Shown piece after piece: positions 3,951 through 63,000 of a stretch of 64,000 bases of DNA. A program made the position numbers and the translations under genes. The number at the start of each line of letters is the position of its first letter. Within the stretch, counting starts at the first letter, position 1. This stretch comes from Mustelus asterias (taxonomy: Eukaryota), in contig NC_135809.1 in the NCBI RefSeq assembly GCF_964213995.1, forward strand, positions 38,440,001 to 38,504,000, in the 5' to 3' direction. The notes beneath the pieces were generated by a model that was not told the DNA's origin, did not search any database, and was given only the letters and a program-made list of their open reading frames with translations.

Positions 3951-4211
3951 AGTAAGAAATTTAACAACACCAGGTTAAAGTCCAACAGGTTTATTTGGTA
4001 GCAAAAGCCACACAAGCTTTCGGAGCTGCAAGCCCCTTCTTCAGGTGAGTGGGAATTCTGTTCACAAACAGGGCATATAAAGACACAAACTCAATTTACA
4101 TGAATAATGGTTGGAATGTGAATACTTACAGCTAATCAAGTCTTTAAGATACAAACAATGTGAGTGGAGAGAGCATCAAGACAGGCTAAAGAGATGTGTA
4201 TATCTCCACAT
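3951..4211 (-). mobile_element. Penelope-like pLTR fragment (family A) with hammerhead motif, inserted in a CR1-type 3' end
   Basis: Reverse complement of the family-A pLTR seen at ~9800-10045 and 6100-6395, plus tail end 'tctccacatca'. Flanked by direct repeat CAGCATTTATTAC (3938-3950 / 4212-4224). Confidence 0.8.
4008..4052 (-). ncRNA. Minimal type I hammerhead ribozyme motif
   Basis: Minus strand reads ccactcac-CTGAAGA-a-GGGGC ttgca GCTCC-GAAAGCTT-gtgtgg. Confidence 0.65.
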
Positions 4212-4696
4212 CAGCATTTATTACCCATACCTGGTCACCCTTGAACTGAGTGGCTTGCTAGGTCATTTCAGAGGACACTTGAGAGTCAACCATATGGCTG
4301 AGGCTCTGGAGTCACATTAGGCCAGACCAGGTAAGGACGGCAGATTTCCTTCCCTAAAAGATATTAGAGAACCAGATAGGTGTTTCAGACATTCGACAAT
4401 GGTTTCATGGTCATCAGTTTTAATTCCAGATACTTTTTATTGAATTCAAATTACACCATCCACCATGGCGTGATTCGAACCCAGGTCCCCAGAACATTAG
4501 CTAAGTTTTTGGATTAATAGGCCAGCTTTAATATCACTAGGCTAGCGCCTCCCCAATTGTTTTGAGTTTTTATTTAAAATCTTCCCCCTCTCAAATATCA
4601 CAAATTGTACAGAATAAAACAGCAGCTTTTGCGACAGAACACCACAAAAATGAAAAAGGGAACAAGGAGCAATAGCCAGTGGTTATGACCTGGAAT

Positions 4697-4993
4697 CACT
4701 GCAGAAGAGGCCATTTGGCCCATCGAATCTGCACCAACTCTCTGACAGTGCATCTTACCCAGTCCCCTGCCCTATCACTGTAACACCTAGATGGCTAATC
4801 CATCTATCCTAAGGGGTAATTTAGCATGGCCAATCCACCTAACCCGCACATCTTTGGAGTGTGGGAGGAAACCCACCCAGACACAGGGAGAATGTGCAAA
4901 CTCCACACAGACAGTCACCCAAGGCCGGAATTGAACCAGGGTCCCTGGAGCTTTGAGACATCAGTGCTAACCACTGTGCCACCATGCTGCCCC
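4697..4993 (-). mobile_element. HE1-like tRNA-derived V-SINE
   Basis: Minus-strand tRNA-like head (GGTGGCACAGTGGTTAGCAC...GGTTCAATTCC), central 'gtgtggagtttgcacattctcc' domain and CR1-like tail. Near-identical copies occur elsewhere in the window. Confidence 0.85.
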
Positions 4994-5136
4994 ATGTCAA
5001 CTTGTAATAGAACATGGTGACAACATGCATGTGACCGGGGCCTAACAGTTAAAAATAACATCTGGATGCAGAGCAGTCTGGAGATGTCCCATAGTACTGT
5101 AGTAATAGAAATGCCTTACTTATGTTCCATGGATTA

Positions 5137-6430
5137 GTTGCATTCTTGGACACACGCATCTCCATCAAGGACGGTCACCTCAGCACTTCACTGTACCACA
5201 AGCCCACAGATAACCTCACAATGCCCCACTTCTGCAGCTTCCACCCTAAACACGTTAAAGAAGCCATCCCCTACGGACAAGCCCACCGAATACACAGGAT
5301 CTGCTCAGATAAGGAGGATCGCAACAGACACCTCCAGATGCTGAAAGATGTCCTCTTAAGAATAGGATATGGCGCTCAACTCATCGATCGACAGTTCCGA
5401 CGCGCCACAGCGAAAAACCACACCGACCTCAGAAGACAAACACGGGACACGGCGGACAGAGCACCCTTCGTCGTCCAGTACTTCCCGGAGCGGAGAAGCT
5501 ACGACATCTTCTCCTGAGCCTTCAACATGTCATTGATGAAGACGAACATCTCGCCAAGGCCATCCCCACACCCCCACTTCTTGCCTTCAAACAACTGCAC
5601 AACCTCAAACAGACCATTGTCCGCAGCAAACTACCCAGCCTTCAGGAGAACAGTGACCACGACACCACACAACCCTGCCACAGCAACCTCTGCAAGACGT
5701 GCCGAATCATCGACACGGATGCCATCATCTCACATGAGAACACCATCCACCAGGTACACGGTACATACACTTCCAACTCGGCCAATGTTGTCTACCTGAT
5801 ACGCTGCAGGAAAGGATGTCCCGAGGCATGGTACACTGGGGAGACCATGCAGACACTATGCCAACGGATGAATGAACACCACTCGACAATCACCAGGCAA
5901 GTGTGTTCTCTCCCAGTTGGGGAACACTTCAGCGGTCACGGGCATTCGGCCTCTGATCTTCGGGTAAGCGTTCTCCAAGGTGGCCTTCACGACACACGAC
6001 ATCGCAGAGTCCCTGAACAGAGACTGATAGCCAAGTTCCGCACACATGAGGACGGCCTCAACCGGGATCTTGGGTTCATGTCACACTATCTGTAACCCCC
6101 ACGATTTGCCTGAGCTTGCAAAATCTCACTAACTGTCCTGGCTGGAGACAATACACATCTCTTTAACCTGTGCTTAACCCTCCACTTACGTTGTCTGTAC
6201 TTTTAAGACATGATTACCTGTAAAGACTCGCATTCCAACCATTATTTTGTAAATTGAGTTTGTGTCTTTATATGCCCTGTTTGTGAACAGAACTCCCACT
6301 CACCTGATGAAGGGGCAGCGCTCCGAAAGCTAGTGGCTTTTGCTACCAAATAAACCTGTTGGACTTTAACCTGGTGTTGTGAGCCTTCTTACTGTGTTTA
6401 CCCCAGTCCAACGCTGGCATCTCCACATCA
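5137..6430 (+). mobile_element. Penelope-like retroelement, 5'-truncated: RT C-terminus, GIY-YIG endonuclease, pLTR and tail
   Basis: Frameshifted ORF pieces: FLDTRISIKDGHLSTSLYHKPTD...AIPYGQAHRIHRICS (RT thumb), and ANVVYLIRCRKGCPEAWYTGETMQTLCQRMNEH...VGEHF...EQRLIAKFRTHEDGLN (GIY-YIG). Followed by a pLTR with a hammerhead and a ~37-bp tail ending 'catctccacatca'. Confidence 0.9.
6296..6336 (+). ncRNA. Minimal type I hammerhead ribozyme motif in the Penelope pLTR
   Basis: ccactcac-CTGATGA-a-GGGGC agc GCTCC-GAAAGCTA-gtgg: intact core boxes, stem II, and stem I cac/gtg. Confidence 0.7.
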
Positions 6431-7429
6431 TTAGATATTATTTCTCAGGTTATATGGAGACCTAGAAACATGCTTCAGAGAATGCCAAGTCATAGCAGTG
6501 ATGCGCCTGATATGTGGAAATCTGTTGCTTGTCCAATGTGTTGATAAACTACTTAGTTTCCAATATGACAATGAGTATAACGATCACCATAAAATATGTG
6601 ATGCATTATATGCTTTATTTCATGTTCATTACAGACTACTTTTGATTTGAATGAATTACAAATTGAGATTCATCCTGGCTGTACATCTTTGCTGCAAATC
6701 GGGCTTAAGATCCCAATAATCTTTCCCAAAGATTTCCCAAAATATTTGTTATGAGACCACACCCCTCCCTCTGCTGGAGTTCAGTCTCTGCTCTTTGTTT
6801 TGACTTCTTTTGAAGGTTTTAGTAACATTTCAAAATAAAGTCTGGAAGCCATAATCAAAGCCTCTTACAGGTTTAAAGAAAGGACTTTGATGTAAGCTGC
6901 TTAATGCTCCCAGCTCTCTCACTGACATTCAAAGATGTATGGCTTAATCTAGTAATGACAAGATTGCAAGCCTGATTAAAAAGCATAAAGCACAGATTGT
7001 AGCTGTACAAACAATCACACAAATTGAAAAAATCCCTCAACCAAGGATATTGGGGAGCCACCAAGAAATACTGGGTTGGTTGCACTTATTTAGACGGATG
7101 CTGCTGGAAACCCTAATGGAGGTTCAATAGGAAGGATTAAATCTATTACATTTTATAATTATTTTAATAATTATTTTATCATCATTACTCGCAGCTGACA
7201 AATGGAATTGGACTTGCTCCTTAATGGAAAGGAGCTCAGAGGAATCAGTGGGAAAATCGATAGCTGCAAACTGAAGAGACGAGCCAGAAGAGGGGTAGAT
7301 ATCTACCTTAACAATAAAGTCAACCCTGGGAATCCACAGCTTACACTGTGAGGAGTCTGGGAGAATTGTTAAAAGAACCCACTGCACTCTAAAGGAAACT
7401 GATCCTGAAAATCCATGATCAACATTGAA

Positions 7430-7810
7430 AGGGGCATTGGAGATGGTCAATATGAAAAAATAAAACAACTGTTAGATAACTGGAGGTGGGTGATGGGTGT
7501 ATGGTATGTCATATAGGCAGCTGAGGTTCGTATGTGTTAAACAGTGAAGCATGGGAGGCTGGCCAGGAGTGCCTTAGAATAATTGAGTCTGGGGATGTCA
7601 AAGGCAAAGATTAAGGTTTCAATAGCAACAGGCTGCGGTAGAAATCGAGGAGTCCAACTAAAATGGTATTAAACAAGTCAAGCCTTGAGGTAATGAAAGT
7701 GTGGGTGAGGGTTTCAGTGGCAGAAGGGGAGAGAAAGGATAGAAGCATGCAGTGTTGTAGTGTTGCAACTGTTTTGGTAATGGAGGAAAAAATATGTATT
7801 TTCACATTGG
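7430..7810 (-). mobile_element. L2 LINE remnant
   Basis: Minus-strand peptide SPSATETLTHTFITSRLDLFNTILVGL matches the L2 ORF2 C-terminal motif (AETLIHAFVTSRLDYxN). Confidence 0.6.
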
Positions 7811-8350
7811 GAGTGATGCTGATAAGGGTGAATTTTTATCCGTCGCTAATTGCTCTGAGAGATGATGGTGGACCTTGTTCTAAAACTGCTGCAAACTTTA
7901 TGGTTATGGAGCTCCCACAAGCTGAGTTCAGGGTCAAGCAGGACACCAATGCTCCTCAGATCCAGGCTCAGCTTGAGGAGGCAGCTAAAGGTTAGCGGAC
8001 TGGGGGCCTGATCCTCGGAGCTGCAGGTGGGATATCTGGTGTATGTATTGGCTCATTCAGGAATTGACATCAGACATGCAATTTGTTTGGTAACATTGTA
8101 CAGCATGATTTCCAGGTCAATATAACAATATTGCTGCTTGGTGACAATAACTCCTTATAGTGCACTTTAGCAACTGAAATGTTTGAAATCATCCATATAA
8201 ATTAGATATATCAACACAATTCCATTAATTCAGATTGATAGCTTTCAAAGCAGAATAATTTTGACCTTTGACATTACATAATTGTCATTGGGGAAATTTA
8301 ATTTTGACTTGTGATCTATACTATCTAGTCTCCTGCACACATATACATAT

Positions 8351-8917
8351 AGTAAGAAGTCTCACAACACCAGGTTAAAGTCCAACAGGTTTATTTGGTA
8401 GCAAATACCATTCGGAGCACTGCTCCTTCGTCAGATGGAGTGGATATCTGCTCTCAAACAGTGCACAGACACAGAAATCAAGTTACAGAATACTAATTAG
8501 AATGCAAATCTCTACAGCCAGCCAGGTCTTAAAGGTACAGACAATGTGGGTGGAGGGAGCATTCAACACAGGTTAAAGAGATGTGTATTGTCTCCAGACA
8601 GAACAGCTAGTGAGTGTTCTGTCTGGAGACAATACACATCTCTTTAACCTGTGTTGAATGCTCCCTCCACCCACATTGTCTGTACCTTTAAGACCTGGCT
8701 GGCTGTAGAGATTTGCATTCTAATTAGTATTCTGTAACTTGATTTCTGTGTCTGTGCACTGTTTGAGAGCAGATATCCACTCCATCTGACGAAGGAGCAG
8801 CGCTCCGAAAGCTTATGGTATTTGCTACCAAATAAACCTGTTGGACTTTAACCTGGTGTTGTGAGACTTCTTACTGTGCTTACCCCAGTCCAACGCCGGC
8901 ATCTCCACATCATGACT
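8351..8917. mobile_element. Penelope pLTR fold-back (inverted partial pLTR + pLTR + tail), family A
   Basis: ~255-bp near-perfect inverted arms (8351-8605 / 8615-8875) around a short spacer. Tail 'gtgcttaccccagtccaacgccggcatctccacatcatgac' is present on the right arm only. Confidence 0.85.
8782..8818 (+). ncRNA. Minimal type I hammerhead ribozyme motif
   Basis: ccat-CTGACGA-a-GGAGC agc GCTCC-GAAAGCTT-atgg. Stem I is ccat/atgg, compensatory relative to cac/gtg in other copies. Confidence 0.7.
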
Positions 8918-9049
8918 ACATATATATACACATACACGTTCATACAAGGTACATGTTCCCTTTCATTGGCAGACAAACACAGTGGAAAAGAAGGAACTGG
9001 CGCACTCCTGTGACAGATAACCATTATTGTAAATTTCTATGCAATGAGT

Positions 9050-9590: not shown

Positions 9591-10045
9591 TTACGGTCAC
9601 GGGCATTCGGCCTCTGATATTCGGGTAAGCGTTCTCCAAGGCGGCCTTCGCGACACATGACGGCGCAGAGTCGCTGAGCAGAAACTGATAGCCAAGTTCC
9701 GCACACACGAGGACGGCCTCAACCGGGATATTGGGTTCATGTCACACTATCTGTAACCCCCACAGAGTTTCACTGGCTGTCTTGTCTGGAGACAATACAC
9801 ATCTTTTTAGCCTGTCTTGATGCTCTCTCCACTCACATTGTTTTGTTTCTTAAAGACTTGATTAGTTGTAAGTATTCGCATTCCAACCATTATTCATGTA
9901 AATTGAGTCTGTGTCTTTATATGCTCTGTTTGTGAACAGAATTCCCACTCACCTGAAGAAGGGGCTTGCAGCTCCGAAAGCTTGTGTGGCTTTTGCTACC
10001 AAATAAACCTGTTGGACTTTAACCTGGTGTTGTTAAACTTCTTAC
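9591..10045 (+). mobile_element. Penelope-like 3' fragment (endonuclease C-terminus + pLTR with hammerhead at 9945-9989)
   Basis: Homologous to 5933-6392. Exact 12-bp TSD TAAAGATATTAA (9579-9590 / 10046-10057). Confidence 0.85.
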
Positions 10046-10652
10046 TAAAGATATTAAGACAGAATGCATTGCTGCTAATTATCTAAAATAATATAAATCG
10101 AGATTTACAATGAGGAATTGCTGGCTTACAAGTAGAAATACTGACTGATGCTGTACCTTTAAAATGATTTATCTGTCCACTGAATGAAGCAATCACCCCT
10201 ATGCCTCTACCTACTGCATGAGATTAGAGATAGACCAGTACTAGATCATATCAACTCTCTGCGCACACTTTCCGATAACTGCCAAAGTGAGCTCATCAGC
10301 TGAATGATCAGAGGCTGGGTGATGCAGCATGTGTGCCCTGGATTCTACATGAAATGAGGTTGAAATATTCTCAACTTGGTTCACGTTGGTATGAATCCAC
10401 AGTACAAATTATAAATTAAGGGCTTGGAGTGCAACCAGATAAGCTGTGACCCTTTAGTGCAGCCCCTTTAGACACTGAACGTGGTGAGTGCTGTCCCATC
10501 AGACCTGCAGCCATTTGAAAATAACAACTTGCACTTCTACGTAGTACCAAAGTTTAGTGATGAGTCATGTCACCATCAAGGTGAAATATGGCATTGCTGC
10601 AGAATGAAACTTTTCACTTTTGCACTGAGCAAAATTAACATTCAGCACTCCT

Positions 10653-10955
10653 AGAGAATCATAGAATCCCTACAGTGCAGAAGGAGGCCATTCGGCCCAT
10701 CAAGACTGCACTGGAGACAATCCCACCCAGGCCCTATCCCCATAACCCCACATATTTACCCTAGCTAGTCCCCCTGTCTCTTAGAGGCAATTTAGCATGG
10801 GCAATCCACCTAACATCTTTGGACAGTGGGAGGAGACCCAGAGGAAACCCACGCAGACATGGGCAGAATGTGCAAACTCCACACAGTCACCCGAGGCCAG
10901 ATTGAACGTAGGTCCTTGGCGCCATGAGGCAGCAGGACTCACCATCACGCCGTCC
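10653..10955 (-). mobile_element. HE1-like V-SINE
   Basis: Same head, central domain and tail as 4697-4993. Confidence 0.8.
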
Positions 10956-12274
10956 TAGTGCTGCACTAACACCAGGTAAGTTCCTCCATTTTTAAGCATA
11001 AACATTTTGGATGCAGCAAGACTAAGAGCACTGTACAAAATTACATGGTAAAAATTTCGAGGGAGAAGAAAGAAAAACTATCAGGTCAAACAAGATTGCT
11101 TTGTGATTAATGGCCACCCTTCAAGAAGAGGACTCTGAGACTCTACCGCACAGTAGAAGAGGAAAATTGGCAAGATAAAAGGTAATACAACTAAATTAAA
11201 CCAATGTTCAATTTAATATGCAAAATTTCCCACCACTAGAAACAAATGAACTCTGCATTTTTGCCTAAGGGTAATATACCTGTTAGAAGGCTGTATAATT
11301 GCACTGTTGTTTTTGATGGCAATTGATTCTCTCAGGTTCCAATGAATGGGAATGCTTTACATGCCTCAGTCAGCTGTTAAGCAGCTGAACTTTCAAGGGT
11401 AACATCTGCTTTAGGCAAATGACATGAAACACTTTCTTATATTGTAACTTGTAGTTACAATTTCATCAGATCCTTTGTGCAAGAAGAAGAAGAACTCATT
11501 AAGAGTTACTATATCATTAAGAGGAAATGCACAGGACATCCAATTTAGGATTTCTTTTTAAACTTGAGAAGAGATTGTAATTAGTGATGAACCACAGCTT
11601 AATTGAACCCTGAGCCTAGACTTGGCCTTTGAATTCTTGCTTATTCTATCAAGAAACCTTTCACAAAACTTCCATATCGAGTCAGGAGGTGCGGGAATGC
11701 CCCTCTGTTCCACAGTACTCCTGATGGCCTCTGTCAGGCTGCAATCACTTTAATATTCTTCTCCCACCCTGTAGTTGACCGAAAGCTGGTGGTCAGCTTA
11801 CGCCAGCAAGGCAGACAGACTAAATTTGATCTATGAGAGAAGGAGCAGTGCAAGGGAAATTGAGTTGTTGGACTGGGAGTTGCAGAGGGGTTATAGGGGC
11901 ACAGGAGCCATGAGGTTGAGGTCAGGAGGCCTTGGGTCACAGTGTGATTGGGCAGGAAGCATAAGGTGGCAGGCCGGGAGGCAGTAGCATCAAGTCCAGC
12001 AACCACATACAGGTCACGTGGATAGAACTGAGTATAAGCTGTAAGCCAGACCGCTAGTGCAGGTGGGTTTACCGGGTAGAACATGATGTGTGACCCAAAA
12101 CTGGGCAAGAGTATTCATGTTAAATGAGGTTGGAAGATAACCACAAGCCTTGATGGTGTGCTCTGCAAATGAATTAAACCATTGAGACTCATCCTTTTCC
12201 CTTGCTGCTGATAATGGTATAAATGCACACAATTTTCACCCTTTGTGACTCCTCACATACTGAAGCAATCCGTC

Positions 12275-13230
12275 ATACTGCAGCATGACCTGGACAACAT
12301 TCAGGCTTGGGTTGATAAGTGACAAGTAATATTCATGCCACATAAGTGCCAGGCAATGACTATCTCCAACAAGAGAGAATCCAACCATCTCCTCTTGACA
12401 TTCAATAGCATTACCATCACTGAATCCCCACCATCAATATCTTAGGGGTTACCATTGACCAGAAACTGAACTGGACCAGCCATATAAATACTGTAGATAC
12501 AAGAACAAGACAAAGGCTGGGAATTCTGCAGAGAGTAACTCACCTCCTGACTCCTCAAAGCCTATCTGCCATCTAAAAAGTACAAGCTAGAAAGTGCGCT
12601 GAAATAATTTCCACTTGTCTGGGTAAGTGCAGCTCCAACATTTAAGAAGCTTAACACCAGCCAGAACAAAGCAGCCCACTTGACTGGCACCCCACCCATC
12701 ACCTTCAACATCCACTCCCTCCACAGACACACGGTATGTACCATTCATAAGATGTACTGCAGCAAGGATCCTTCGACCAACGCCTTTTGAACCCGCAATC
12801 TCTACCAAGAGCAGCAGATATATGAGAACACCACCACCTGCAAGTTCCCGTCCAAATCACTCACCATTCTGACTTCAAAATATATTGCTGCGCCTTCACT
12901 GTCACTCGATCAAAACCCTGGAACTCCTTCCTGAAACAGCACTGTGGGTGTATCTATACGGTAAGAAGTCTCACAACACCAGGTTAAAGTCCAACAGGTT
13001 TATTTGGTAGCAAATTTGCTACCAAATAAACCTGTTGGACTTTAACCTGGTGTTGTGAGACTTCTTACCGTGTTCACCCCAGTCCAACGCCGGCATCTCC
13101 ACATCATGTGTATCTATACCACATGGACTGCAGTGGTTCAAGAAGGTAGCTCACCACCATTTTCTCAAGGACAATTAGGGATGGGTAATAAAAATGCTGG
13201 CCTACCCAGCAATGCCCAAGTCCTTTGAAA
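12275..13230 (+). mobile_element. CR1-group LINE 3' portion, interrupted at 12960-13107
   Basis: Decayed LQHDLDNIQAWVDK*QVIFMPHKCQAMTISNKR RT C-terminus and 3' end 'caccaccattttctcaaggacaattagggatggg'. Confidence 0.75.
12960..13107. mobile_element. Perfect 110-bp palindromic Penelope pLTR-end insertion plus tail
   Basis: 12960-13069 is a spacer-less palindrome centred on gcaaa|tttgc. TSD GTGTATCTATAC (12948-12959 / 13108-13119). Confidence 0.85.
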
Positions 13231-16335: not shown

Positions 16336-16896
16336 TTAGCTGCTTAGCTCACCAAGATCACTGAAGGGTGAAGAGGATTTAGACTCTCCATCACTATTGC
16401 CTTCTCTTCTTGGTGCAGGACAGGGAAGCTTATGAATCTCCACAGCCCTCGGAGATAGTGACCCTCTCTCCTTAGTCTCTGAAGGGTTCAGTAACTCCTG
16501 AAGGTGTTTGATGTAGCTGATAGCAGCCCTTAAGGTCTCCACTTTGCTCAGTCTTTTGTCTGCAAAATCTTCCGGGAGATGCTCCCTGAGTCGTGCATAG
16601 CCTTCATTGACATAGCGCACCCTCTGCCGCTCCCTTTCATTGCGTTTCCTGATAAAAGCTGGCTCAAAGGAATAATCATAGATGCCCAAGTGGCTGTGAA
16701 AAGGTAGGTAAGACAGCCTGTTGGCATATCCTTCACAATATGTGCCATCCAGATATGCAGGATCAACAGGAAAAGATAATGGCAAACCCTCTGCAAAGGG
16801 CATCGCAAGGCAGTCATGTACCCTAGCCATGGGCATCCCAATGGGTCTTGGGTAGGGAATTCTTTCCAGTGATGATCCTCGCTGATCGCCATCCAT
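16336..16896 (-). CDS. ASCL4: Achaete-scute family bHLH transcription factor 4, 186 aa, single coding exon
   Basis: bHLH EPAFIRKRNERERQRVRYVNEGYARLREHLPEDFADKRLSKVETLRAAISYIKHLQELL is of the ASCL3/4/5 class, and the gene is divergent from PRDM4 as in human. The track start at 16977 is TTG with an in-frame TGA upstream; the first ATG (GAAATGG) is at 16896. A splice acceptor 'ttttattttag' lies at ~17106. Confidence 0.88.
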   Translation of the reverse strand: MDGDQRGSSLERIPYPRPIGMPMARVHDCLAMPFAEGLPLSFPVDPAYLDGTYCEGYANRLSYLPFHSHLGIYDYSFEPAFIRKRNERERQRVRYVNEGYARLREHLPEDFADKRLSKVETLRAAISYIKHLQELLNPSETKERGSLSPRAVEIHKLPCPAPRREGNSDGESKSSSPFSDLGELSS

Positions 16897-17512
16897 TTCA
16901 GATTCAAGTATCTGCAGCTCACTTCCAACTTTATGGCAATTTGCCGTCAACAGTTGTGTAAAAGTTTCAAATGTCAATTTTCCTTGTTTGAACTTCTCAA
17001 ATACACCTCATGTTACACTAGTCTCTTTCAAACTTCAGAAAAAAGATGGATAAACATTAAATAGTGCAGAAGCTGTTCTGTGTGTCCTTGATGGAGTAGT
17101 TTGTCCTAAAATAAAAATGCAGAGTGTAAGTTACACCAAAAGAAACTTAAATTAGCTTGCTCTGAGTTTTTGTCAGTACTTAACTTCTCACAGCATTTGT
17201 TGCCATCATGTACATGATATTATAGCAAACAATGTTTTAACACTTTGGTAGAAATAACACTTATTTTGTTTGTTACATATAAGACCAAATGACTCATAAA
17301 TTAAACTTGGTGGTTACTGAGAATTAAAGACCTGGTCTAATTACCCTGGGGTAGTAACCATGACTTACTGTGTGGCCTAGCAACCCAAGGTCTAGAAGGT
17401 TGCTCCTTACACTATGCTTGTAAGGAGATGTTTTGAATAAATGTTATTTGTTCACCTGTTCTCAATTGCAAAATTGGAGGGGAATTTAACTCTTCCCTAC
17501 CCAGCAGAAATA

Positions 17513-22794: not shown

Positions 22795-22903
22795 CCACTC
22801 ACCTGAAGAAGGGGCTTAGAGCTCCGAAAGCTTGTGTGGCTTTTGCTACCAAATAAACCTGTTGGACTTTAACCTGGTGTTGTTAAACTTCTTACTGTGT
22901 TTA
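22795..22903 (+). mobile_element. Penelope pLTR 3' fragment beginning at a hammerhead motif (22795-22839)
   Basis: ccactcacCTGAAGAaggggcttagagctccGAAAGCTTgtgtgg followed by the pLTR end 'aacctggtgttgttaaacttcttactg'. Confidence 0.75.
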
Positions 22904-49900: not shown

Positions 49901-52273
49901 CACGGGGAGGATGTGCAAACTCCACACAGACAGTGACCCGAAACCGGAATTGAACCCGGATCCCTGGCACTGTGAGGCAGCAGTGCTAACCACTGTGCCA
50001 CCGTGCCTCCCAGTCAGTAATATTTGTGTAGTTGGAGAATAATTTACCATGAGATGTTCATAAGAAGACTTCACATTTATTAACATACAAAGAACAGTAC
50101 AGCACAGGAAACAGGCCCTTCGGCCCTCGAAGCCTGTGCCGCTCATTGGTCCAACTAGACCATTCGTTTGTATCCCTCCATTCCCAGACTGCTCATGTGA
50201 CTATCCAGGTAAGTCTTAAACGATGCCAGCGTGTCTGCCTCCACCGCCCTACTTGACAGATCATTCCAGGCCCCCACCACTCTCTGTGTAAAAAAACGTC
50301 CCTCTGATATCTGAGTTATACCTCGCCTCTCTCACCTTGAGCCCGTGACCCCTCGTGATCATCACCTCCGACCTGGGAAAAAGCTTCCCACTGTTCACCC
50401 TATCTATACCCTTCATAATTTTGTACACCCCTATTAGGTCTCCCCTCATTCTCCATCTTTCCAGGGAGAACAAGCCCAGTTTACCCAATCTCTCCTCATA
50501 GCTAAGACCCTCCATACCAGGCAACATCCTGGTAAACCTTCTCTGCACTCTCTCTAACGCCTCCACGTCCTTCTGGTAGTGCGGCGACCAGAACTGGACG
50601 CAGTACTCCAAATGTGGCCTAACCAGCGTTCTATACAGCTGCAACATCAACTGCTTCAAAATGTTGCAAACCGACTCGCCTAGATTTTAAATAATTATTT
50701 TCCTTCAGTATTTACCAAGGAGATAGAACAGGTGGACATGACATTGAATGCTGAGATGAGTAATGAGATGAATGCATTTAAAATTAAGCAGCTCAGATTG
50801 TTGGGCCGAGCACTCAACCCTGAAGATCTCCTGCAGTGATACTCTGGATTGAAATATTGGCCTCCAACAACCACCTTTTTCTGTGCACGGTCTGACTCCA
50901 ATCAGAGAAATGTTCCACCCCCGCCTGATTCCCATTGACTTTAATCTTGCTAGGGCTGCTCGATGTCACACACTGTCAAATGCTGCCTTAATGTTGAGGA
51001 CAGCTCTTTTGTCCATGTTGGGACTGAGGCTGTAAAGAGGTAATGCCAGAAACGCGTGGGATACATATCAGGAAAGGATTACAGGCTGGGTATCTTTTCT
51101 CTTGAAAAAATGCTGAAGGGTGATCTGGTTTTAAAATCATCTATTATGAATAGTTTTAATAGAGTGGATACAGAGAGCGATGTAGAGACAATGTTTCCTC
51201 TTGTAGGGACAAGCATATCTCGAGTATATCAATACCAGATAGTCACAAGTAGAACTTGCTACCACAGGAACTGGCTGAAGGGAATAGTATAGATGGACTT
51301 GAGGGAGATGGCAGATTAAATGAAAAAAATGGGGGAATGGCCTGTTTCTCTACTTTTTTATCTTGTGTAATGTAATTCTGTTTGTCCCACAAGTAGCAAT
51401 GAGATGAACAGATAATGTTTTTGATGTTGCTAGAAGACTCTTGCTCTTCCTTGAGTAGTACCATGAATTATTTCTTCATGTGAGCTGAACATGCAGACTT
51501 GGTTTAATGTGTCATCCAAAAGACACTGGTTGTGACTAAGAGACGTTCTTTCAGTGCTGCACAGAAATGTCAATCTAGATTATATGCTCATGCCACTGGA
51601 ATGCGGCTTGAACACACACTAAGGCAAAAATACTGTCACTGAGCCCAGACACCTGCACTAGGATCACCTCAAAAGGATTAAAATCAGTGTCAACTGGTTT
51701 CTTGACAGGGGTAGGTAGACCAGCCCCAAACGTAATGACAGAATTACTGCTCACTCATGCAAGTTGCTATAGATTCCAATCATGGGGAAAACTCTACAAG
51801 TAGGTTAGCTTAAATAATATTGTTAATGGGTATTTCAGGTCATCATTGAAGATTAGAGGTGGAGGATCTTTGATTTTACATATAATCATATATGGTATCT
51901 ACTAAAAATAAAGAGTGCAAATTAAAAAGCATCCTTTTTAAAGAATTGTTTTTATACGTTTTTGTGCAGAGAACGACAAATCAAGTGTCCAAATTGTGAC
52001 AAGCTCTTCTGGAGGACAACTCACTTAAAGAAACATCTCAACTCACACGAAGGAAGAAGGGATTTCATCTGTGAGAAGTGCTCAAAAGCATACTTGACAA
52101 AATATCACTTGACTAGACATTTAAAGATTTGTAAAGGCTCCAAGACATGCCTACCTATGCAAGATCTGGAGGAAGAGGAAGTAGATAGTGAGGATGAAGA
52201 ACTGTTGCAATCTAGTGCTGGGACTTGCCAGTTGAACAATGAAGACTACACCACAGAAGACAGTGCTCAGTAG
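25820..52273 (+). CDS. PRDM4: PR domain zinc finger protein 4, spliced CDS 2337 nt (778 aa)
   Basis: join(25820..25949,28781..28966,31426..32223,33769..33918,34559..34677,37099..37184,42265..42392,44107..44373,48231..48399,51970..52273). All introns are GT-AG and phases match. The product has a zinc knuckle, PR/SET domain, C2H2 array and acidic tail like human PRDM4. Confidence 0.95.
27725..27790. mobile_element. 66-bp Penelope mini-insertion (inverted pLTR end + tail end)
   Basis: Exact 12-bp TSD TAGTCAATTTAG (27713-27724 / 27791-27802). Confidence 0.75.
28781..28966 (+). CDS. PRDM4: PRDM4 coding exon 2
   Basis: [25 protein letters not shown]...[18 protein letters not shown], bounded by ag|...|gtaagt. 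Confidence 0.95.
29040..29926. mobile_element. GC-rich non-autonomous TIR element (Harbinger/MITE-like)
   Basis: Starts 'ggggtgattctc' and ends 'gggagaat' (partial inverted terminus). C-rich interior with a poly-C tract. Confidence 0.5.
30063..30366 (-). mobile_element. HE1-like V-SINE with alternative 3' tail
   Basis: V-SINE head and central domain. Its tail 'gcagtgttaatgtaagcctacttgtgactaataaataaacttt' differs from the CR1-like tail of other copies. Confidence 0.8.
30414..30645. repeat. 30-bp minisatellite (TGTGTCCGTGCTGCCTCCATATTCCCGTCT) x~8
   Basis: Directly visible. The 3' copies are identical and the 5' copies diverged. Confidence 0.95.
31426..32223 (+). CDS. PRDM4: PRDM4 coding exon 3 (798 nt)
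   Basis: [16 protein letters not shown]...[19 protein letters not shown], bounded by tgcag|...|gtaagt. Confidence 0.96.
33145..33456 (-). mobile_element. CR1 LINE 3' end
   Basis: TRGHNLRLK...[22 protein letters not shown]...DRFL plus CR1 3' UTR. Confidence 0.85.
33769..33918 (+). CDS. PRDM4: PRDM4 coding exon 4 (zinc knuckle)
   Basis: [50 protein letters not shown]. Confidence 0.95.
34559..34677 (+). CDS. PRDM4: PRDM4 coding exon 5 (PR domain)
   Basis: [40 protein letters not shown], 119 nt. Confidence 0.95.
34874..35170 (+). mobile_element. HE1-like V-SINE with alternative 3' tail
   Basis: Same subfamily as 30063-30366. Confidence 0.8.
35660..36860 (+). mobile_element. Rex1/Babar-clade LINE internal fragment (degraded)
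   Basis: [16 protein letters not shown]...[10 protein letters not shown]...FPNQKPW, then [39 protein letters not shown], with frameshifts and stops. Confidence 0.8.
37099..37184 (+). CDS. PRDM4: PRDM4 coding exon 6 (PR domain)
   Basis: [29 protein letters not shown], 86 nt, bounded by tctag|...|gtgagt. Confidence 0.95.
37680..37990 (-). mobile_element. SacSINE1/DeuSINE-like SINE
   Basis: Minus-strand head 'ggctcagttgatagcactctcacctctgagtcac...ggttcaaa' and the Deu-like core shared with 9050-9565. Confidence 0.65.
39329..40473. mobile_element. Non-autonomous TIR element (Harbinger-like) with perfect 14-bp TIRs
   Basis: AGGGCAGAATTCTC (39329-39342) and GAGAATTCTGCCCT (40460-40473). No clean TSD seen. 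Confidence 0.65.
40556..41029. mobile_element. Penelope pLTR fold-back with two hammerhead motifs (40652-40696 minus; 40928-40972 plus)
   Basis: Inverted arms, with the tail on the left arm. TSD GTATCCTTCAGT / GTATCCTTTAGT (40544-40555 / 41030-41041). Confidence 0.85.
41420..41960 (-). mobile_element. CR1 LINE 3' remnant
   Basis: 'cataagaaataggagcagg' 3' end and decayed ORF2 C-terminus. Confidence 0.7.
42265..42392 (+). CDS. PRDM4: PRDM4 coding exon 7 (end of PR domain)
   Basis: [42 protein letters not shown]. Confidence 0.95.
43300..44010 (+). mobile_element. CR1 LINE 3' remnant
   Basis: [26 protein letters not shown] and 3' end 'ggccaaatggcctactgctgct'. Confidence 0.75.
44107..44373 (+). 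CDS. PRDM4: PRDM4 coding exon 8 (zinc fingers)
   Basis: [15 protein letters not shown]...[11 protein letters not shown]...[24 protein letters not shown]. Confidence 0.95.
45035..45895 (-). mobile_element. CR1-group LINE 3' portion (same family as 12275-13230)
   Basis: Reverse-complement similarity to 12275-13230. Confidence 0.75.
46246..47893 (-). mobile_element. Young, 5'-truncated CR1 LINE (ORF2 RT), antisense in a PRDM4 intron
   Basis: KSPGPD...NYRPVSLTS...QHGF...DFSKAFDKV (47237-47875 frame), then [10 protein letters not shown]...KFADDTK (46321-47340 frame). One frameshift near 47290 and an intact CR1 3' end. Confidence 0.95.
48231..48399 (+). CDS. PRDM4: PRDM4 coding exon 9 (zinc fingers)
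   Basis: [56 protein letters not shown]. Confidence 0.95.
49692..50011 (-). mobile_element. HE1-like V-SINE
   Basis: Full head, central domain and CR1-like tail. Confidence 0.85.
50085..50655 (-). mobile_element. CR1 LINE 3' fragment
   Basis: [41 protein letters not shown]...RGHGLKV. Confidence 0.9.
51970..52273 (+). CDS. PRDM4: PRDM4 last coding exon
   Basis: [13 protein letters not shown]...[21 protein letters not shown] plus an acidic tail, stop TAG at 52271-52273. Confidence 0.95.
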
Positions 52274-53372: not shown

Positions 53373-53606
53373 GAGAAAACACTGGAAAATCTCAACAGGT
53401 CTGGCGGCATCTGTAAGGAGAGAAAAGAGTTGACGTTTCGAGTCCAGATGACCCTTTGTCAAAGCTACCTAATCCTAACTTTGACAAAGGGTATCTGGAC
53501 TCGCAACATCAGCTCTTTTCTCTCCTTACAGATGCTGCCAGACCTGCTGAGATTTTCCAGCATTTTCTCAGATTCCAGCATCCTCAGTAATTTGCTTTTA
53601 TCCAGA
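53373..53606. mobile_element. Family-B fold-back element (Penelope-like) with decayed hammerhead motifs
   Basis: Inverted arms ~53374-53465 / 53478-53569. The minus strand reads agct-TTGACAA-a-GGGTC atctg GACTC-GAAACGTC-aact. TSD TTGTTAGCCAAAA (53360-72 / 53607-19). Confidence 0.7.
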
Positions 53607-55223
53607 TTGTTAGCCAAAATGGACATTATAGCCTGTGCATTTGTGTAATATATTGTAAATTTTTCTGTAATATATTTTCCTTTATGCTCCATTCAAACTA
53701 ATATAAAATGTGAATTGGAATGCAGCATCATTTTTATGTTAAAGGCAAAATAAATAATCTTGTTTCAACATTTTGCCTTACAAAACTGATCTACAAAAAA
53801 GCCAAATAAACCAGTTTTTGGTACCAGAAGTCCTTTTTTCTTGGTACTTCTTCCAAAACCAGCTGTTCAACCAAAGTTGCTAATCATGTGGGGAACCATG
53901 CAGACTGTGAGTCTATGTAGGCTGAACTGTCATACAAATCCTTTTAGCAGTGGGCTTTATACAATTATACTTGTGTGAAATATGTTGATTGCTCCCAAAG
54001 AGTTCACAGCTAAGTGTTCCATTCAAAATCCATAATAATGGCGAAGTTTAGCCTTTAAGTGAAAATGTAATGGGGACAAGTGGTTATTCTCCAGTTGTAT
54101 ATTTTGCTAAACTGAAATGCTTTAGGTGACCCGGAAAAGTATCCAAGCCTGATGCACTGGAAGATATTTTATCCTGCAGAAATATTTTTTAGCAATTGGG
54201 ATAGTTTGGGAGGAAATGTCTCCTCTGGATTCCAACTTAAGCCTTATTGATGGAAAGCCCCTTTGGGTAACTGTGATCATTTCTGGAGAGTACAAGATCA
54301 GGGCACTAAATTGTAATGTCTAAGATCACGTGATGTCTATAATTGGAACTCGAAGTACAGATCACATCCCTTTAAGCAGGTGTATTCCTGCAAACATGAT
54401 GGTTGGTGTAAGAGCTGTCAAGACTTGCAGACCAGACCTCCTGTCCAGCTGGCTGGTATCCTCAGGTTACCAGGCTACCCACCAACCTGAGTTGGTGGGT
54501 AGCTTGGCCTATGACAGCAAGACGACCAGGATCAACCTCAGCATTGGGAGCAAGTAAAGTGGCCAAAAAATAATTTAATAAAGCACTCCTTTCACAGCCT
54601 CCCACTACCTGCGAAAGGGCTGCAGAGAGATTTATCAAGTTTATTTAACTGAGCACTTGCCTTGCAGTGTTGAGCAGGTCTTTGCTCAGCAATCACCATT
54701 TTCTGTTCCCTGTCATCAGATGAGTGATTTTCTCTCTCTTGGCCTAGTAAGTGCTCCTGAATTCTTATCACATTAATACTGCTATGACATGGGGTTCAGG
54801 TGATTTCTAAACGATTACCTCTTTTTGGCCAATATGAAACAACTGCCCTTTTCAAACAGGTGATTAAAGTGATTGGGCTTGTATTCAGATAGTTACAATA
54901 CTGAAGGTGAGTTTGACATTCAGGGCAGTAAGATTTATTCTGTATGCAAGTGCTTCTTGAAGGACATATTTTCAAATTGCTTTCCACATTCAGGCATTTT
55001 AGTTTACTCCCTCCCCCCACTTATTTAAAAACTGTTACCTAGTTTTACTACTATTCTTAAAGCCATACCCATAACCAATACGGCATTAATTACCATAATC
55101 TGAGTTCATATTAAAGTATTAATGCAGTTCCAGTTGTTTACAAATTAAATGAACTCCTAGCTACCTAATTACATGAGCAGTTATTTTCTTATGTTAGGTT
55201 AATTGAAAATATTCACTCTAGTA

Positions 55224-56232: not shown

Positions 56233-56449
56233 ATAAGAAGTCTCACAACACCAGGTTAAAGTCCAACAGGTTTATTTGGTAGCAAAAGCCACTAGCTTCC
56301 GGAGCACTGCTCTTTCGTCAGGCAAGTGGGAGTTCTGTTCACAAACAGGGCATACAGAGACACAAACTCAATTTACAAAATAATGGTTGGAATGCAAGTC
56401 TTTACAGGTAATCAAGTCTTAAAGTTACAGACAACATGAGTGGACAATG
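56233..56449 (-). mobile_element. Penelope pLTR fragment (hammerhead core mutated GAAA>GGAA)
   Basis: Family-A sequence with exact 12-bp TSD TCAGTTATCACC (56221-32 / 56450-61). Confidence 0.8.
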
Positions 56450-57033: not shown

Positions 57034-60000
57034 CTGTTATAAAATATTAGTTGTTAATAAATGGAGCAGGATGTAATAGCTTAAACACAATCTTCCCTTG
57101 AAATCAATAATATATCCAGAATGCAAGGGTAGATTTTTGTTACAGCTTGTTTACTTCTGCTGTAATCATGGACAAATAATTAAAGATTAACAGGAAACAA
57201 AAATAAACAAACTCTGAAAATGTAAGCTTTTTTGTAGTCTTTTAAAACAAACAACAGGAATATTTTGCTCTCTAGAAACAGGCAATGGTAACTGTGTACT
57301 TTTATTTATGTGCACATTAATTACTTTATATGGATCAAAAACAGAAAATGCTGGATAATCTCAGCAGATCTGACAGCATCTGTGGAAAGAGATCAGAGCA
57401 AAGAGTCATCCAGACCTGAAACATTAACTCTGTTTCTCTCTCCACAGATGCTGTCAGACCTGCTGAGATTTTCCAACATTTTCTGTTTTTGTTTGATTCC
57501 AGCAATTTGCTGGAATCAAACAAAAGTAATTTGCTTTTATTTTACTTTATATGGATGTGTTTATATTATTTCATAAAATGTAGAATCCATAGAATCCTAC
57601 AGTGCAGAAAGAGGCCATTGGGCCCATCGAGTCTGCACCAACCACAATCCCACCCAGGCCCTATCCACATATCCCTACATATTTATCCACTAACCCCTCT
57701 AACCTATGCATCCTGGGACACTAAGGGACAATTTAGAATGGCCAATCAACCTAGCCCGCACATCTTTGGACTGTGGGAGGAAACCCAGGCAGACACAGGA
57801 AGAATGTGCAAACTCCACACACACAGCGACCCGAGCCGGGATTCGAACCCAGCTCCCTGGAGATGTGAAGCAGCAGTGCTAACCACTGTGCTACCGTGCC
57901 ACCCATGTACAAATGTATTCAGTCAGAACTGAGGGAAGCTAACTGTTTTGTTTTAATTTTTATACCATTTTGTACAATGTATTTGTATTAACATTTACTC
58001 ACGGGATGAATTATGCTGAGGCCTCAGGTTTTACTTGTGCTGGGACATGTTACACATAATGAGACCAGCATGTACATTCATAGCACTGATCAGCTAACTT
58101 TGGCAGAGACCACTAACTCGTGTACAGTGCATGATCAGAGATCAGAATCAATTAGTGTCGGCCACCTCTGCAAGTGTGTTTAATTAACCAATGAACGTGA
58201 ATGGGTGTTCTCTGAAATAATGTATAATAATGACTAAGAAAGAGAACAATCATGTAAGACAGAGAAGGAACTCCTAATAAACTCGTACGATTGTACCAGA
58301 CCACGAGATGTCGGTGAATTCTTGAAACTAACAGAACTCTGCTTTCAACAGTCTCTACTTTTATCCCTTTAATAAGGCATGGAGGCATCTGTTCCTTTAT
58401 CTAAAGTAGTTTTGGCTATAATTTTGTGCCACTTGTTGAATGTGAGTTGTGTCAAGAAGTAGGATCAAATAGAATGTCAAGTCTACCAAATCTTCATAAA
58501 TTTCTATTAACTTCTGCATCATAATCCACCAGAATAAATACTACCACAATGAGAAAAGTTTATTGAACTCTACTGCGTGTGTCCTAGCTGGCACCAGGTC
58601 TTGTTTGCCCATCACTTCTGTGCATTCCGGCCTTCACTGGCTCCTGCTTCAACAATGCCTCAATTTGAAAACAATCATTTTTTTAAAAATTCCTTAATGA
58701 TCTAACGCCTCCCTATCACTAAGTTCTTCCAGCTTCACAAACCTCAGATCTGTGCGTTCCTCCAATTCTGGCCTTTTGCACCTTCCCAATTTTAACTTCC
58801 CAACTGGCGGCAGTGTCACCAGACCAAAGAATTGGATTTCCCTCTCCAAGTTCTCTCATTTTGGGACCCATCTTGTTGATCAAGCTTTTGATCATCTGTC
58901 CTAAGTCCTTACATGGTTCAGTGTCAAATGTTGTTTAATAGTTCTCCTGTGATTCACATGTTTTCCTGCAATAACGATGATATATAAATACAAGTTGTTG
59001 TTCGAAGTGAATAATATAGCACTGAAGATGACCTTGATAGTCCATCTATACTGCTGGTTCTTTTGAACAGCACTTCAGTTAGTCTCAATCTCCCACTCTT
59101 TCACATCCCTGCAATTCTTTTCTCTTTCGAGTCATTCTGACTAAATCTGTGCCCTCTTGTCATCAACCCTTCCGCAATAGGAAACAGATTCTCTTCATTT
59201 GCTCTTTCTAACCCCTCATGACTTTATACAGCTCTATCAAATTTCTTCTTAGCCTTCTTTGTTCTCAAAACAAAATACCCAGCTTCTCCAATTTATCCCT
59301 GTAACTGAAGTCCCTTATTCCTAGAACAAATTCAGGTAAAGCTCTTCTGTACCCTCTCCAAAACTTTAGTGTCCTTCATAAAATGTAATATACAGAATTG
59401 AATACAATACTTCAGCTGGGGGCTGAGTCAGTGTTTTATGTAGGTTTAGTCCAAGATCTGAAATGCTTTCTTAACTGTTTTGTTAACATTGAAGGTGGCA
59501 GGACACATTATATGCACCAACACCCCAAGGGTCTCTGTTTTGCACCCCTTTAAAACTTGTATTGTCACTCTAATATACAAATCAAAACTTCAACATAGTG
59601 TGGAAGAAAAAACAATCTCCAACTGAATAAGTAAGGAGCTCAGATGTCTTCCATTCGCTTTGAATGTCCTTAAATTGATAGAGTTACAGTACCAGTTAGA
59701 CATACAGTCTGGAATAACATTGAAGTACTAGAACTGGGAAAATAAATTTATTTTTACAGAACCATCCCTTAAACAATTGGCAAATTGATGGTGAATATTA
59801 AGAGCCAGGCAAGACTTCATTCTTTCCTAAGAGGTGAAGTGAAAATCATAACACTAGAAGTACTCACAAAGACTGCATCAGGATCATGCCATAGGTGCCA
59901 GAAAATCCAGAACCACATAAAAGCACTGAGAAACTCCGACTGCAGTACTTGATTCTTGGTCAGTTGTGGATACTGTCGATATTGAGGTTCAATGTGGGCC

Positions 60001-63000
60001 CCACCACCAGCTCTGGAAAAGGAGGGAGTAGATAGGCATATGTTAGAAAATGTATATTGCCATGGATTGAAACCTAATTAATTAACATTCTGAGGAAGGG
60101 CAATAAACCCAGGTAAAATTTCCAAGGAATGCTCAAATTTCACCGAACCTCAATTAGTCACTATAAAGGTGGAGAATCCTTTGGCAGATAATCGAGGCTG
60201 CAGAGCAGTGAAAAAGATTATACCAACCAAACATTCAGGGTACAATAATGTCTCTAAGACAACTTTCTTTTCAAATATTTTATTTTAAGCTGACAAAAGA
60301 TTTGAAAAGCAACAACAGACAAGAAAGGCTACAAGGGCCTTTCTGCTCACCTGAACAGGCTGATCAATACACGTTTCACTGCTTCCTGCAGTATTGTCTG
60401 CCACCACCCACAGAAATTCAAAGGAGTAAGGTGAGTTCAAACAATCAAGAGTTGAACTGTAGGGGATATTCCAGGACGTCAGTTTATTATTGCAACCCAT
60501 ACAATTTCAGGGCGGCATGTTGGCACAGTGGTTAGCACTGCTCCCTCACAGCACCACTACGCTACTATCTCCCATTTGAGATAAGTCAGAAAGAATTCTT
60601 AAATTTTCTTTAATAGGCCATTCAAACAAGTTATTCAATATTCATAGGTGTCCAAGAAAATAAATAAAATACTGGTTTGATCTAAGTTGTACTTAATCTT
60701 GCATGTGAAATTCTATTCAGTTCTGGTCTTCATATCAAAGGAAAATTGTATAATTATTGAAGGGAATCTAGACGAAGATCTACATTATTGATTTCTGATC
60801 TACGAGGAAAGCAGATCAATCCTGTGGCATTATTTTCTGCAGAACAGTGAGGGAGTGGGTGGTGGAAGCGGGAAATTGGGAACAGTCTGTGATTTTCAAA
60901 AGAGACCGCATGATTTTCTCAGATGTGAAGATTTTATACTCAGGGAAGTTCTTAACATCTGGTACAGAATCCGATGACAAGGTGGACAAGAGTTTAATGC
61001 CAAAGAAGTGCAGTTTAATAGGGTGACCAATTTGTGGAATGAACAGTTAGGACAATGACACAAATGTACAAGGAGTTTATTTTTAAAGGACCTGGATTCA
61101 TTCATTAATAAAGCGGGTCCAAGGCCATCAGTTCTAGAATTAGGAAGGAAAATGATCAATGGTTAGAACGACCAACGGTCTCTTATGCTAAGCAATGCTG
61201 TGCTGTACCACATTCCTTATAACAACAGTGACTACACTTCAACTTCATTAACTGAAAAATGCATAGGAACATCCTGAGGTGGCAAAAGGCACTATGTAAA
61301 TGCAAGTTTTTATTTTGCTAGAAATGTCCTTAAAAAATTATACTTTGCGCATAAAATTTGCAAAAGTACATTTTGTAAATGCCAATTTGAACTGTATGTA
61401 AATTGAAACCTCTCCCCTTAGTCCAGGAACAGGAGATTTATAAGGGATTTGATGAAAATCTTTTTCATCCAGAGGGTGGTGGGAATCTGGAACTCTCTGC
61501 CCTGAAAGGGTGGCCATGATGTGGAGATGCCAGCGTTGGACTGGGGTGGACTCAGTAAGAAGTGAGTCACCTATGAAGGGACAGCGCTCTGAAAGTTTGT
61601 GATTCCAAATAAATCTGTTGGACTTTAACCGGGTGTTGTGAGACTTCTTACTGAAAGGGTAGTGGGGGCAAGAACCCTCAAAACATTTTAAGCAGCATTT
61701 AGACGAGTAGTTGAAACGTCATGGCATACAAGGCTACAGACCAAGTGCTGGAAAATTGGATTAGAATAGATGGTTGGCACAAACATGGACCAAAGGTACT
61801 CTTTTTGTGCTGTAAAGCTCTACAACTCTGAAACACAATTCAATTTTTTTTCAATCCAGTGCATGGAATTGAGGTGCCATTCCACATAATTACAGTCTAT
61901 ATTTACAATATACATTGCACATCATATTCTCTGGTAAATGGAGCCTGGAGAAGTTTTCCACAGGTTTCAGACCCATGGTGTATTATTTTGGGAAGCCTTT
62001 AAGCTGTGGCATTTCCTCAATAGTCTTTGCAGCAACTGCACCAAGCTTTTGTGTATCCTTCAGTACACAGTCCTGGACCTTGAAACATGTCAGACTGCAA
62101 CCCTCAATCATGGACTTTGCAGTGAGAGTATGACACATTTCAGGCAGACCAAAGAGTGTGTCAAGTTGATGCTGTGCATCCCTGGCAATAGAGCATAGAG
62201 CAGTGTCCTGCATTATGGAACAGCCCAGGATGAAACACAACTAAAGCTACTACATCTCTGCATGGGCACATTCCAGAAGGAATTGGGCAACAATCATAGA
62301 ATCATAGAATGCTACAGTGCAGAAAGAGGCCATTCGGCTCATCGAGTCTGCACCGACCACAATCCCACCCAGGCCCTAACCCCATATCCCTACATATTTT
62401 ATCCACTAATCCCTCTAACCTACGCATCTCAGGAAACTAAGGGGCAATTTTATCATGGCCAATCAACCTAACCCGCACATCTTTGGACTGTGGGAGGAAA
62501 CCGGAGCACCCGGAGGAAACCCACGCAGACACGAGGAGAATGTGCAAACTCCACACAGACAGTGACCCGAGCCGGGAATCGAACCCAGGTCCCTGGAGCT
62601 GTGAAGCAGCAGTGCTAACCGCTGTGCTACCGTGCAGCAATCGTCCCCATTGCTGCCACAAGGGCAACATATAGCATCGCTGAGGCTCCAGATGTCATCA
62701 GGATCTGACAGGGGGGGTACTTCTTACCAACAGCCCAAACTACATTTGAGAGTTCTGTCATATCCTTTTAGTCTGTTCACTGAACCATCCAACATGATCT
62801 GGTCAGCACAGTGGCTAGCACGCAGGACCCGGGTTCAATTCCAGCCTTGGGTCACTGCCTGTGTAGAGTTTGCCCATTCTTCACATGTCTGAGTGAGTTT
62901 CCACTGGGTGCTCCGGTTTCCTGCCACAGTTCAAAGACGTGCAGCCGAAAGAGAAAATGCTGGGAAATCTCAGCAGGTCTGGCAAGTAATCTCAGCAGGC

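Follow-up and report, generated by a model that had tools for sequence, protein, structure and literature searches.

A 64,000-nt stretch of the genome of the shark Mustelus asterias (GCF_964213995.1, NC_135809.1, positions 38,440,001 to 38,504,000 of the forward strand; hereafter the window, with positions counted from its first letter) contains dispersed copies of a repeat which carries a hammerhead ribozyme (HHR) motif lacking helix III. The motifs are interpreted as minimal type I hammerheads located in the pseudo-long terminal repeat (pLTR) of a Neptune-type Penelope-like element, selected in the source lineages of that element, predicted to cut as dimers and mostly inert in their dispersed copies. 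The probability of this interpretation as a whole is estimated at about 0.8.

Hammerhead motifs in the window and their carrier

An earlier note, prepared from the letters of the window, listed eight intact copies, and all eight were found at the positions and on the strands it gave. Each reads in the order stem I, CUGANGA, A, stem II, GAAA, GC, U, U or A, stem I. A sequence-independent descriptor of the minimal HHR (two core boxes and minimum lengths of 4 bp for stem II and 3 bp for stem I) returned the same eight copies from the window, none from the reversed window, and none or one from each of 20 order-2 Markov controls. As had been claimed, position 7 varies (A, C or U), the stem II loop is variable, and stem I covaries, pair 2.1-1.1 being C-G in seven copies and U-A in the copy at 8782. 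The palindrome AGCU, described in the note as a reduced stem III, is present in all eight, where it spans positions 15.1 to 16.1, helix III being absent. An extra A lies between positions 9 and 10.1 in every copy, and G10.1 pairs with C11.1 except at 40688 (copy 40652-40696), where C11.1 is changed to U and the pair is G-U. The copy at 21369-21409 has lost the inner pair of stem II. Three copies reported to have broken cores, near 8410 and 56298 on the minus strand and near 61570 on the plus strand, are real. The note had overlooked three further arms which are truncated 3' of the cut (two at 12958-13108, one at 27723-27777), and also a second hammerhead family, at 53432-53462 on the minus strand. 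The features are as follows (subfamilies are defined in the next section).

4008-4052, minus: intact minimal HHR, subfamily A; C3 at 4044, H17 = U at 4014; truncated pLTR 3949-4208 with a 12-bp target-site duplication (3939-3950, 4213-4224).
5137-6095, plus: 3' part of a Penelope-like open reading frame (ORF) with reverse transcriptase (RT) thumb, CX4CxxC linker and GIY-YIG endonuclease; 5'-truncated, one frameshift near 5481-5487; 86-92% identity by tblastn to residues 573-892 of the protein P0002 described below.
6296-6336, plus: intact minimal HHR, subfamily B; C3 at 6304, H17 = A at 6332; pLTR behind the ORF remnant, with tail up to 6431.
8351-8613, minus: head-to-head insertion, inverted arm; HHR broken by a 6-nt deletion running through GAAAGCU, about 8400-8440.
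8782-8818, plus: intact minimal HHR, subfamily C; C3 at 8786, H17 = U at 8814; stem I CCAU/AUGG; sense arm of the inversion 8351-8919, with tail.
9945-9989, plus: intact minimal HHR, subfamily A; C3 at 9953; remnant of endonuclease end and pLTR, 9595-10046, with a 12-bp target-site duplication.
12958-13108, both strands: tiny head-to-head insertion, no HHR; the arms both start roughly 5 nt downstream of the predicted cut, and the plus arm has the tail.
21369-21409, minus: minimal HHR with intact core, subfamily B; C3 at 21401; stem II shortened to 4 bp; pLTR remnant 21317-21411.
22795-22839, plus: intact minimal HHR, subfamily A; C3 at 22803; remnant 22795-22904 begins at the 5' edge of stem I.
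27723-27777, minus: pLTR 3' end truncated 3' of the cut, no HHR.
40652-40696, minus: minimal HHR, subfamily A; C3 at 40688; C11.1 changed to U; tail-bearing arm of the inversion 40553-41031.
40928-40972, plus: intact minimal HHR, subfamily A; C3 at 40936; second arm of the same inversion, 40553-41031.
53432-53462, minus: minimal HHR of the second family; U3-A8 core UUGACAA, ACGU, H17 = C; inversion 53373-53620; one stem I mismatch.
56234-56444, minus: pLTR remnant with a broken HHR; G10.1 changed to A and A13 to G; 12-bp target-site duplication.
61509-61653, plus: old pLTR remnant with a broken HHR; G5 missing; inverted tail.

The attribution of the motifs to a Penelope pLTR, also made in the earlier note, is borne out at two places, window 5137-6431 and a locus elsewhere in the genome (L046), both of which join motif-bearing pLTR to an RT-endonuclease ORF. 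On self-comparison of the window, all copies of the first family (family 1) are one repeat, covering 3,783 bases, and at 5137-6095 this repeat runs into the frameshifted end of the ORF. A genome search with that remnant gave 150 scored matches of 91-94% identity. At L046 an ORF of 892 amino acids (P0002) lies between two pLTRs with predicted cuts 3,005 nt apart, giving one motif to each unit of this length; its AUG is at the end of a tail of about 40 nt, 99 nt after the predicted cut, and the 5' hammerhead has a 3-nt core deletion. P0002 matches RVT_1 (E 4e-9) and contains a CX4CxxC linker at residue 754, followed by VYLI-C-x3-C (792), YIGET (806), NEH (819) and GEHF (835), ie the residues of a GIY-YIG-type, CCHH endonuclease. 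The Pfam GIY-YIG profile gave no match to P0002 itself, and PF01541 is recorded for many of its relatives. The closest relatives of the ORF are shark proteins (84-95% identity), in agreement with the shark origin given in the note, and a PDB sequence search with it gave no match. A CX2-5CxxC linker is the mark of Neptune and Nematis elements (PMC8557442). The ORF residues thus point to a Neptune-type Penelope-like element, the linker mark being common to Neptune and Nematis.

Insertions of the element are 5'-truncated and often head-to-head, with the tail at one end only, and insertions of this kind are also described in PMC8557442. The window copies are 3' fragments, often head-to-head inversions, and are decaying neutrally. 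Among 57 motifs there were 26 neighbour pairs no more than 3.5 kb apart, 17 divergent, 7 on the same strand and 2 convergent, in a sample of 36 stretches of which 20 had been picked for holding a motif. At one further locus (L003) two near-identical short inversions, at 5700-5900 and 7480-7700, lie 1.8 kb apart with the same junction, which suggests local duplication or re-copying of an inverted insertion.

Exact matching across the genome, for which all reversed-pattern controls gave 0, found 107,612 intact cores when pairable stem II variants were allowed (about 29 per Mb), 92,096 with the stem II arms given in the earlier note, 187,064 pLTR 3' ends and 643 tail-AUG-ORF junctions. The element appears to be very abundant and recently active. 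For comparison, about 4,000 minimal HHRs are given for coelacanth and about 9,000 for Xenopus tropicalis (PMC4209133), the latter being the largest figure in the text of that paper and approximately 10-fold below the shark count. The absolute number is no record, since axolotl has up to 120,000 retrozyme copies (PMC7229834).

A donor-like GTAAGT (window, about 9868) and an acceptor-like CCCCAG in the tail enclose the pLTR hammerhead, and the same arrangement occurs at another locus (L166, 1732 to 1541). An intron around the hammerhead was considered and set aside: the 14 joints listed from contigs of four runs guessed to be RNA did not include the predicted one, and no holder recorded as RNA was listed, so that these data provide no evidence on expression or splicing. 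In subfamily C the predicted 3' cleavage product (window 8815-8835, plus) begins with AUG and a six-codon frame, MVFATK; subfamily A has no AUG within its 99-nt leader.

Selection, covariation and predicted folding

The sample for sequence comparison consisted of 227 arms with upstream flank, of which 186 fell in five clusters of at least three members, here called subfamilies. Not one of the 11 core columns varies among the five subfamily majority sequences, compared to 14 of 47 columns in the upstream flank (P = 0.05) and 36 of 104 non-core columns in all (P = 0.017). Variation between subfamilies is confined to positions known to be free, ie N7, H17, loop II and the stem pairs. Substitutions acquired after insertion gave a different picture. 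Private changes number 9 in 957 core positions and 49 in 4,340 flank positions, and a cruder count, including shared variants, gave 12 in 960 and 114 in 4,225, respectively. The earlier note had held that core mutation at the flank rate would speak against function. Across copies the core does change at that rate, as is expected because the copies are dead; between subfamilies it does not, and only this second comparison informs on function, favouring selection. Selection kept the core and stems in the source elements only, and the inserted copies are unprotected. Among 129 copies chosen without regard to the core, 107 keep all 11 core nucleotides.

Compensatory change, which the note had reported for stem I, was found in both stem I and stem II across a set of 23 natural types picked by hand. 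No cell of proximal stem I or of stem II is unpaired. At pair 2.1-1.1, 17 types have C-G and 6 have U-A; the middle pair of stem II is A-U in 12, G-U in 9 and G-C in 2; and 10.1-11.1 is G-C in all 23. The distal extension of stem I also changes on both sides (A-U 13, U-A 7, U-G 1). Overall 94% of helix cells are paired, against no more than 57% in slid controls, and four pairs change on both sides.

A scan of the window against Rfam at E values up to 5 gave 15 matches, with no hammerhead family among them, a result we would expect for motifs without helix III. Sub-threshold microRNA and CRE matches in Rfam (8558-8662, 12965-13064, 53402-53542 and 57348-57479) are the long hairpins of head-to-head insertions. 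The missing Rfam match would also suit a chance likeness of the repeat end to the hammerhead core, and copy number is not independent evidence to the contrary, as all copies derive from few sources. Such a chance likeness is, however, largely refuted already and extremely improbable, for the diagnostic features occur together: the extra nucleotide between 9 and 10.1, the G10.1-C11.1 pair, the palindrome, the position in the pLTR, and compensatory changes in two unrelated families.

Without helix III a single motif cannot close the core, and two motifs can do so by way of the palindrome, with low activity (PMC4209133; PMC6765202). The preferred mechanism begins with multimeric transcripts of tandem source elements, in which two motifs would pair through AGCU to give a shared stem III of 4 bp, probably with help from the element's protein. 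A slow cut, or cutting and rejoining, would then give RNA of unit length. Since the site is intact in most copies, most reverse transcription would have used RNA that was uncut or rejoined; any genomic copy which spans the site implies such a template. The earlier proposal that the ribozymes process the RNA of the element may thus hold for tandem source elements; it does not extend to the dispersed copies. Most of these are truncated or inverted, and their mutation is neutral. They are probably inert, since they come without a partner motif on the same strand, and in an inversion the motif would be locked up in double-stranded RNA.

Folding as monomers, by programs which cannot model the hammerhead core, gave a closing probability for stem II of 0.71-0.96 in five of the eight window copies and 0.15-0.31 in the other three. 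The palindrome duplex of 4 bp was predicted at -4.5 to -6.5 kcal/mol. This weakness bears on the idea that dispersed copies might cleave host transcripts, whether in trans or by pairing with a neighbour that happens to lie on the same strand, and so cut introns or read-through RNA. The density of intact cores, the seven same-strand pairs and the AGCU common to the plus-strand copies at 6304, 8786 and 9953 would permit this; coverage of the pLTR by contigs from the four runs guessed to be RNA is no demonstration of transcription. Against it, the 4-bp duplex is weak, the arms of an inversion would pair with each other across the motif, substitutions after insertion are as frequent in the core as in the flank, and reported activity is low even in dimers (PMC4209133). 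Cutting of host transcripts is therefore considered very improbable.

Several observations weigh against dimer cutting in source elements as proposed above. Stem I has a probability of 0.03 or less in seven of the eight monomers, only the copy at 8786 favouring it (0.57), and in subfamily A and at 21401 it loses to a hairpin that forms immediately 3' of the cut. When two copies are cofolded without constraint, an intermolecular stem II duplex is preferred over the AGCU duplex. H17 is U in 133 of 176 scored copies and in the commonest subfamily; U17 cleaves poorly, and it extends the palindrome to AAGCUU, which could tie up A14. One distal pair of stem I is open in 15 of the 23 types, the covariation represents few independent events in source lineages, and the 11 nt examined 3' of the motif are likewise well kept. 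Copies bearing the ORF start never began within 10 nt of the upstream cut (0 of the first 30 of 643), and 11 of the 30 extend across it. In the Anolis element, the motif was dispensable for insertion in vitro and no RNA-seq ends were found at the cut, cleavage occurring only with the element's protein (PMC11167929).

An explanation which takes up much of this is that the motif derives from a hammerhead but no longer cuts in young subfamilies, being kept as a folded protein-binding or 5'-leader element or hitchhiking in a conserved pLTR end. The competing 3' hairpin with low stem I probabilities and the prevalence of U17 are on its side, as are the 107 of 129 copies with a full core, the site-spanning copies that come from uncut or rejoined RNA, and the facts that insertion in vitro proceeds without the HHR (PMC11167929) and that Naiad elements have none (PMC8557442). 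It would not predict that only the known free positions vary between subfamilies, nor the exchange of the core pair C3-G8 for U3-A8 in family 2, which is what catalysis demands. We regard a non-cutting element as unlikely.

Insertion junctions and the second hammerhead family

If cut RNA were copied, 5' ends should accumulate at the cleaved bond. In 238 arms sampled by their 3' ends, breakpoints are about 2.4-fold denser over the hammerhead than upstream (0.0107 versus 0.0044 per nt, P = 3e-6). Seven lie exactly at the bond where 2.1 are expected, the arms not being independent and some being ambiguous on inspection, and 13 lie within 2 nt of it compared to 10.5 expected (P = 0.26).

Junctions of subfamily A, defined as positions preceded by three non-consensus bases, were counted genome-wide: 148 at -4, 366 at -2, 377 at -1 and 1,188 at 0; a stricter filter gave 353 at +1. 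Adding a letter to the filter left 852 at 0 versus 324 at +2, the latter also requiring a 3' marker. The excess at the predicted cut is about threefold; the ratios between positions are rough, because the filters differ and the junction bases are A-rich. Junctions at 0 are mostly inversions, and in many a recurring CAAAA(G) linker stands ahead of the predicted 3' cleavage product, which would fit fold-back of the cDNA upon itself, in some cases preceded by one extra base. A G precedes the start in 39 of the first 100 listed junctions at 0, by hand count. Small deletions were rejected as the cause of the peak, most of the junctions being those of inversions.

Subfamily B, with a share of the arms estimated from 7 of 146 only, showed no peak; among 100 listed cases there were 21 true junctions, 19 of which keep the A of position 17 and 2 of which do not. 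Subfamily C gave no clear peak, with 325 at 0 versus 373 at -2 under unequal filters, and one palindrome made up 37 of its first 100. The subfamily A peak is probably due to local sequence. A family 1 transcription start at the 5' edge of stem I was also rejected, since an excess of starts between -35 and -39 in a first sample (14 of 103 at risk) was not replicated in subfamily A (2 of 49). Old subfamily D copies cluster loosely at that edge. Three subfamily A copies (L222, L223 and the 5' copy of L046) share a start at an A six bases before C3, each after a non-consensus G, and are too few for a capped start.

The motif at 53432-53462 has flanks unlike those of family 1. Its core reads UUGACAA, with the same extra A, a stem II of 5 bp and the palindrome ACGU; decayed relatives of this family 2 lie at 57336-57520 and 62945-63136. 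A degenerate pattern for it had 4,569 exact matches in the genome, and among the first 100 listed (hand count) the pair at 3-8 is U-A in 85, C-G in 9, C-A in 5 and U-G in 1. In 2 of 22 loci family 2 is joined on its upstream side to the C-terminal part of a related ORF (E 1e-13 and 5e-11). One locus (C1, 20.32 Mb) taken for a full family 2 element proved to be two separate insertions with no matching ORF. The same hammerhead anatomy is present in two unrelated families with C3-G8 and U3-A8 exchanged, a swap already reported from Schistosoma (PMC4209133).

Thirteen of the 25 family 2 arms in these 22 loci (L186-L207) start where stem I begins, 3-4 nt ahead of U3, subject to a floor of 3 nt in the search pattern, three arms that are palindromic inversions and two loci that share one junction. 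About nine independent starts remain, where a uniform rate would give fewer than one. A TATAAA box starts 30 nt upstream of this start and an acceptor-like TTTAG ends at it; transcription start is the simpler reading, because no shared upstream exon was seen.

Taken jointly, the junctions might be a fossil record of the RNA template, reflecting cleavage in vivo for a minority of cDNAs in the youngest subfamily of family 1 and a ribozyme at the 5' end of the family 2 transcript. This joint proposal is tentative and, on balance, doubtful. Were it true, the subfamily A stops at the bond, often with an extra G as from an untemplated C, would be genomic evidence of hammerhead cleavage in vivo, and the family 2 ribozyme, at the very 5' end of its transcript, would be a switch for removing the cap.

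Relation to known elements and other features of the window

Judged by their sequence, the shark motifs are members of the class of minimal HHRs already described from metazoan Penelope-like elements (Cervera and De la Pena 2014, PMC4209133). They share with that class the type I topology, the absence of helix III, the palindrome at 15.1-16.1, the extra nucleotide between 9 and 10.1, G10.1-C11.1, the location in the pLTR, the U3-A8 variant, opposite-strand pairs 100-700 bp apart and tandem pairs about 3 kb apart. They differ in a stem II of 5-6 bp and in the predicted distal extension of stem I and competing 3' hairpin. The Poseidon element of Anolis carolinensis (PAc; Frangieh et al. 2024, PMC11167929) also has a pLTR hammerhead near the ORF start and a tail of 30-40 nt at one insertion end, marking two start sites of reverse transcription. 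In PAc, however, the ORF contains both the tail and the cut, the latter 26 nt in, whereas in the shark element the cut precedes the AUG by 99 nt and the tail stops at the AUG; the shark element also carries the zinc-finger-like linker of Neptune and Nematis. Non-LTR retrozymes (PMC7229834; bioRxiv 10.64898/2026.07.22.740005) resemble the shark repeats in very high copy number, type I topology and a link to Penelope, and one chondrichthyan is among the genomes with retrozymes in the latter source. Retrozymes are short tandem non-coding repeats, with canonical hammerheads in axolotl, whereas the shark copies are scattered and represent truncated ends of an autonomous element. No retrozyme-type array was detected in the window by Tandem Repeats Finder, and the long copies join the ORF.

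In the one paper found to combine hammerhead ribozymes, Penelope-like elements and the word shark, that word refers to a fold shape only, and no shark or skate family is named in the text parts and two of the three supplementary files of PMC4209133. The literature search as a whole turned up no description of these shark families; Repbase, Dfam and Lunse et al. lay outside it and may list them. Cleavage by dimers is reportedly treated by Lunse et al. (RNA Biol).

Motifs of this class cut poorly in vitro and were dispensable in the one reconstituted element. The shark genome is well suited to a study of their role, as it offers over 100,000 copies with an intact core, divided among several subfamilies, some copies with long open frames, and in addition a family in which the core pair is exchanged. 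The motifs of the window itself are most likely neutral remnants.

A single open frame on the minus strand (16339-17007) encodes a helix-loop-helix domain (Pfam HLH, E 2e-18) and presumably resembles an achaete-scute-type gene; no link to the hammerheads was seen. Two overlapping minus-strand frames with RVT_1 matches at 46324-47938 are a broken LINE-type reverse transcriptase. Related stretches occur at 12248-12959 and 45138-45827, and at 46249-46809 and 50087-50647. A dispersed repeat of about 330 bases, which we take to be SINE-like, has copies 72-87% alike at 4794-4997, 10655-10944, 30048-30369, 34875-35194, 49690-50012, 57581-57908, 62297-62638 and 62825-63303.

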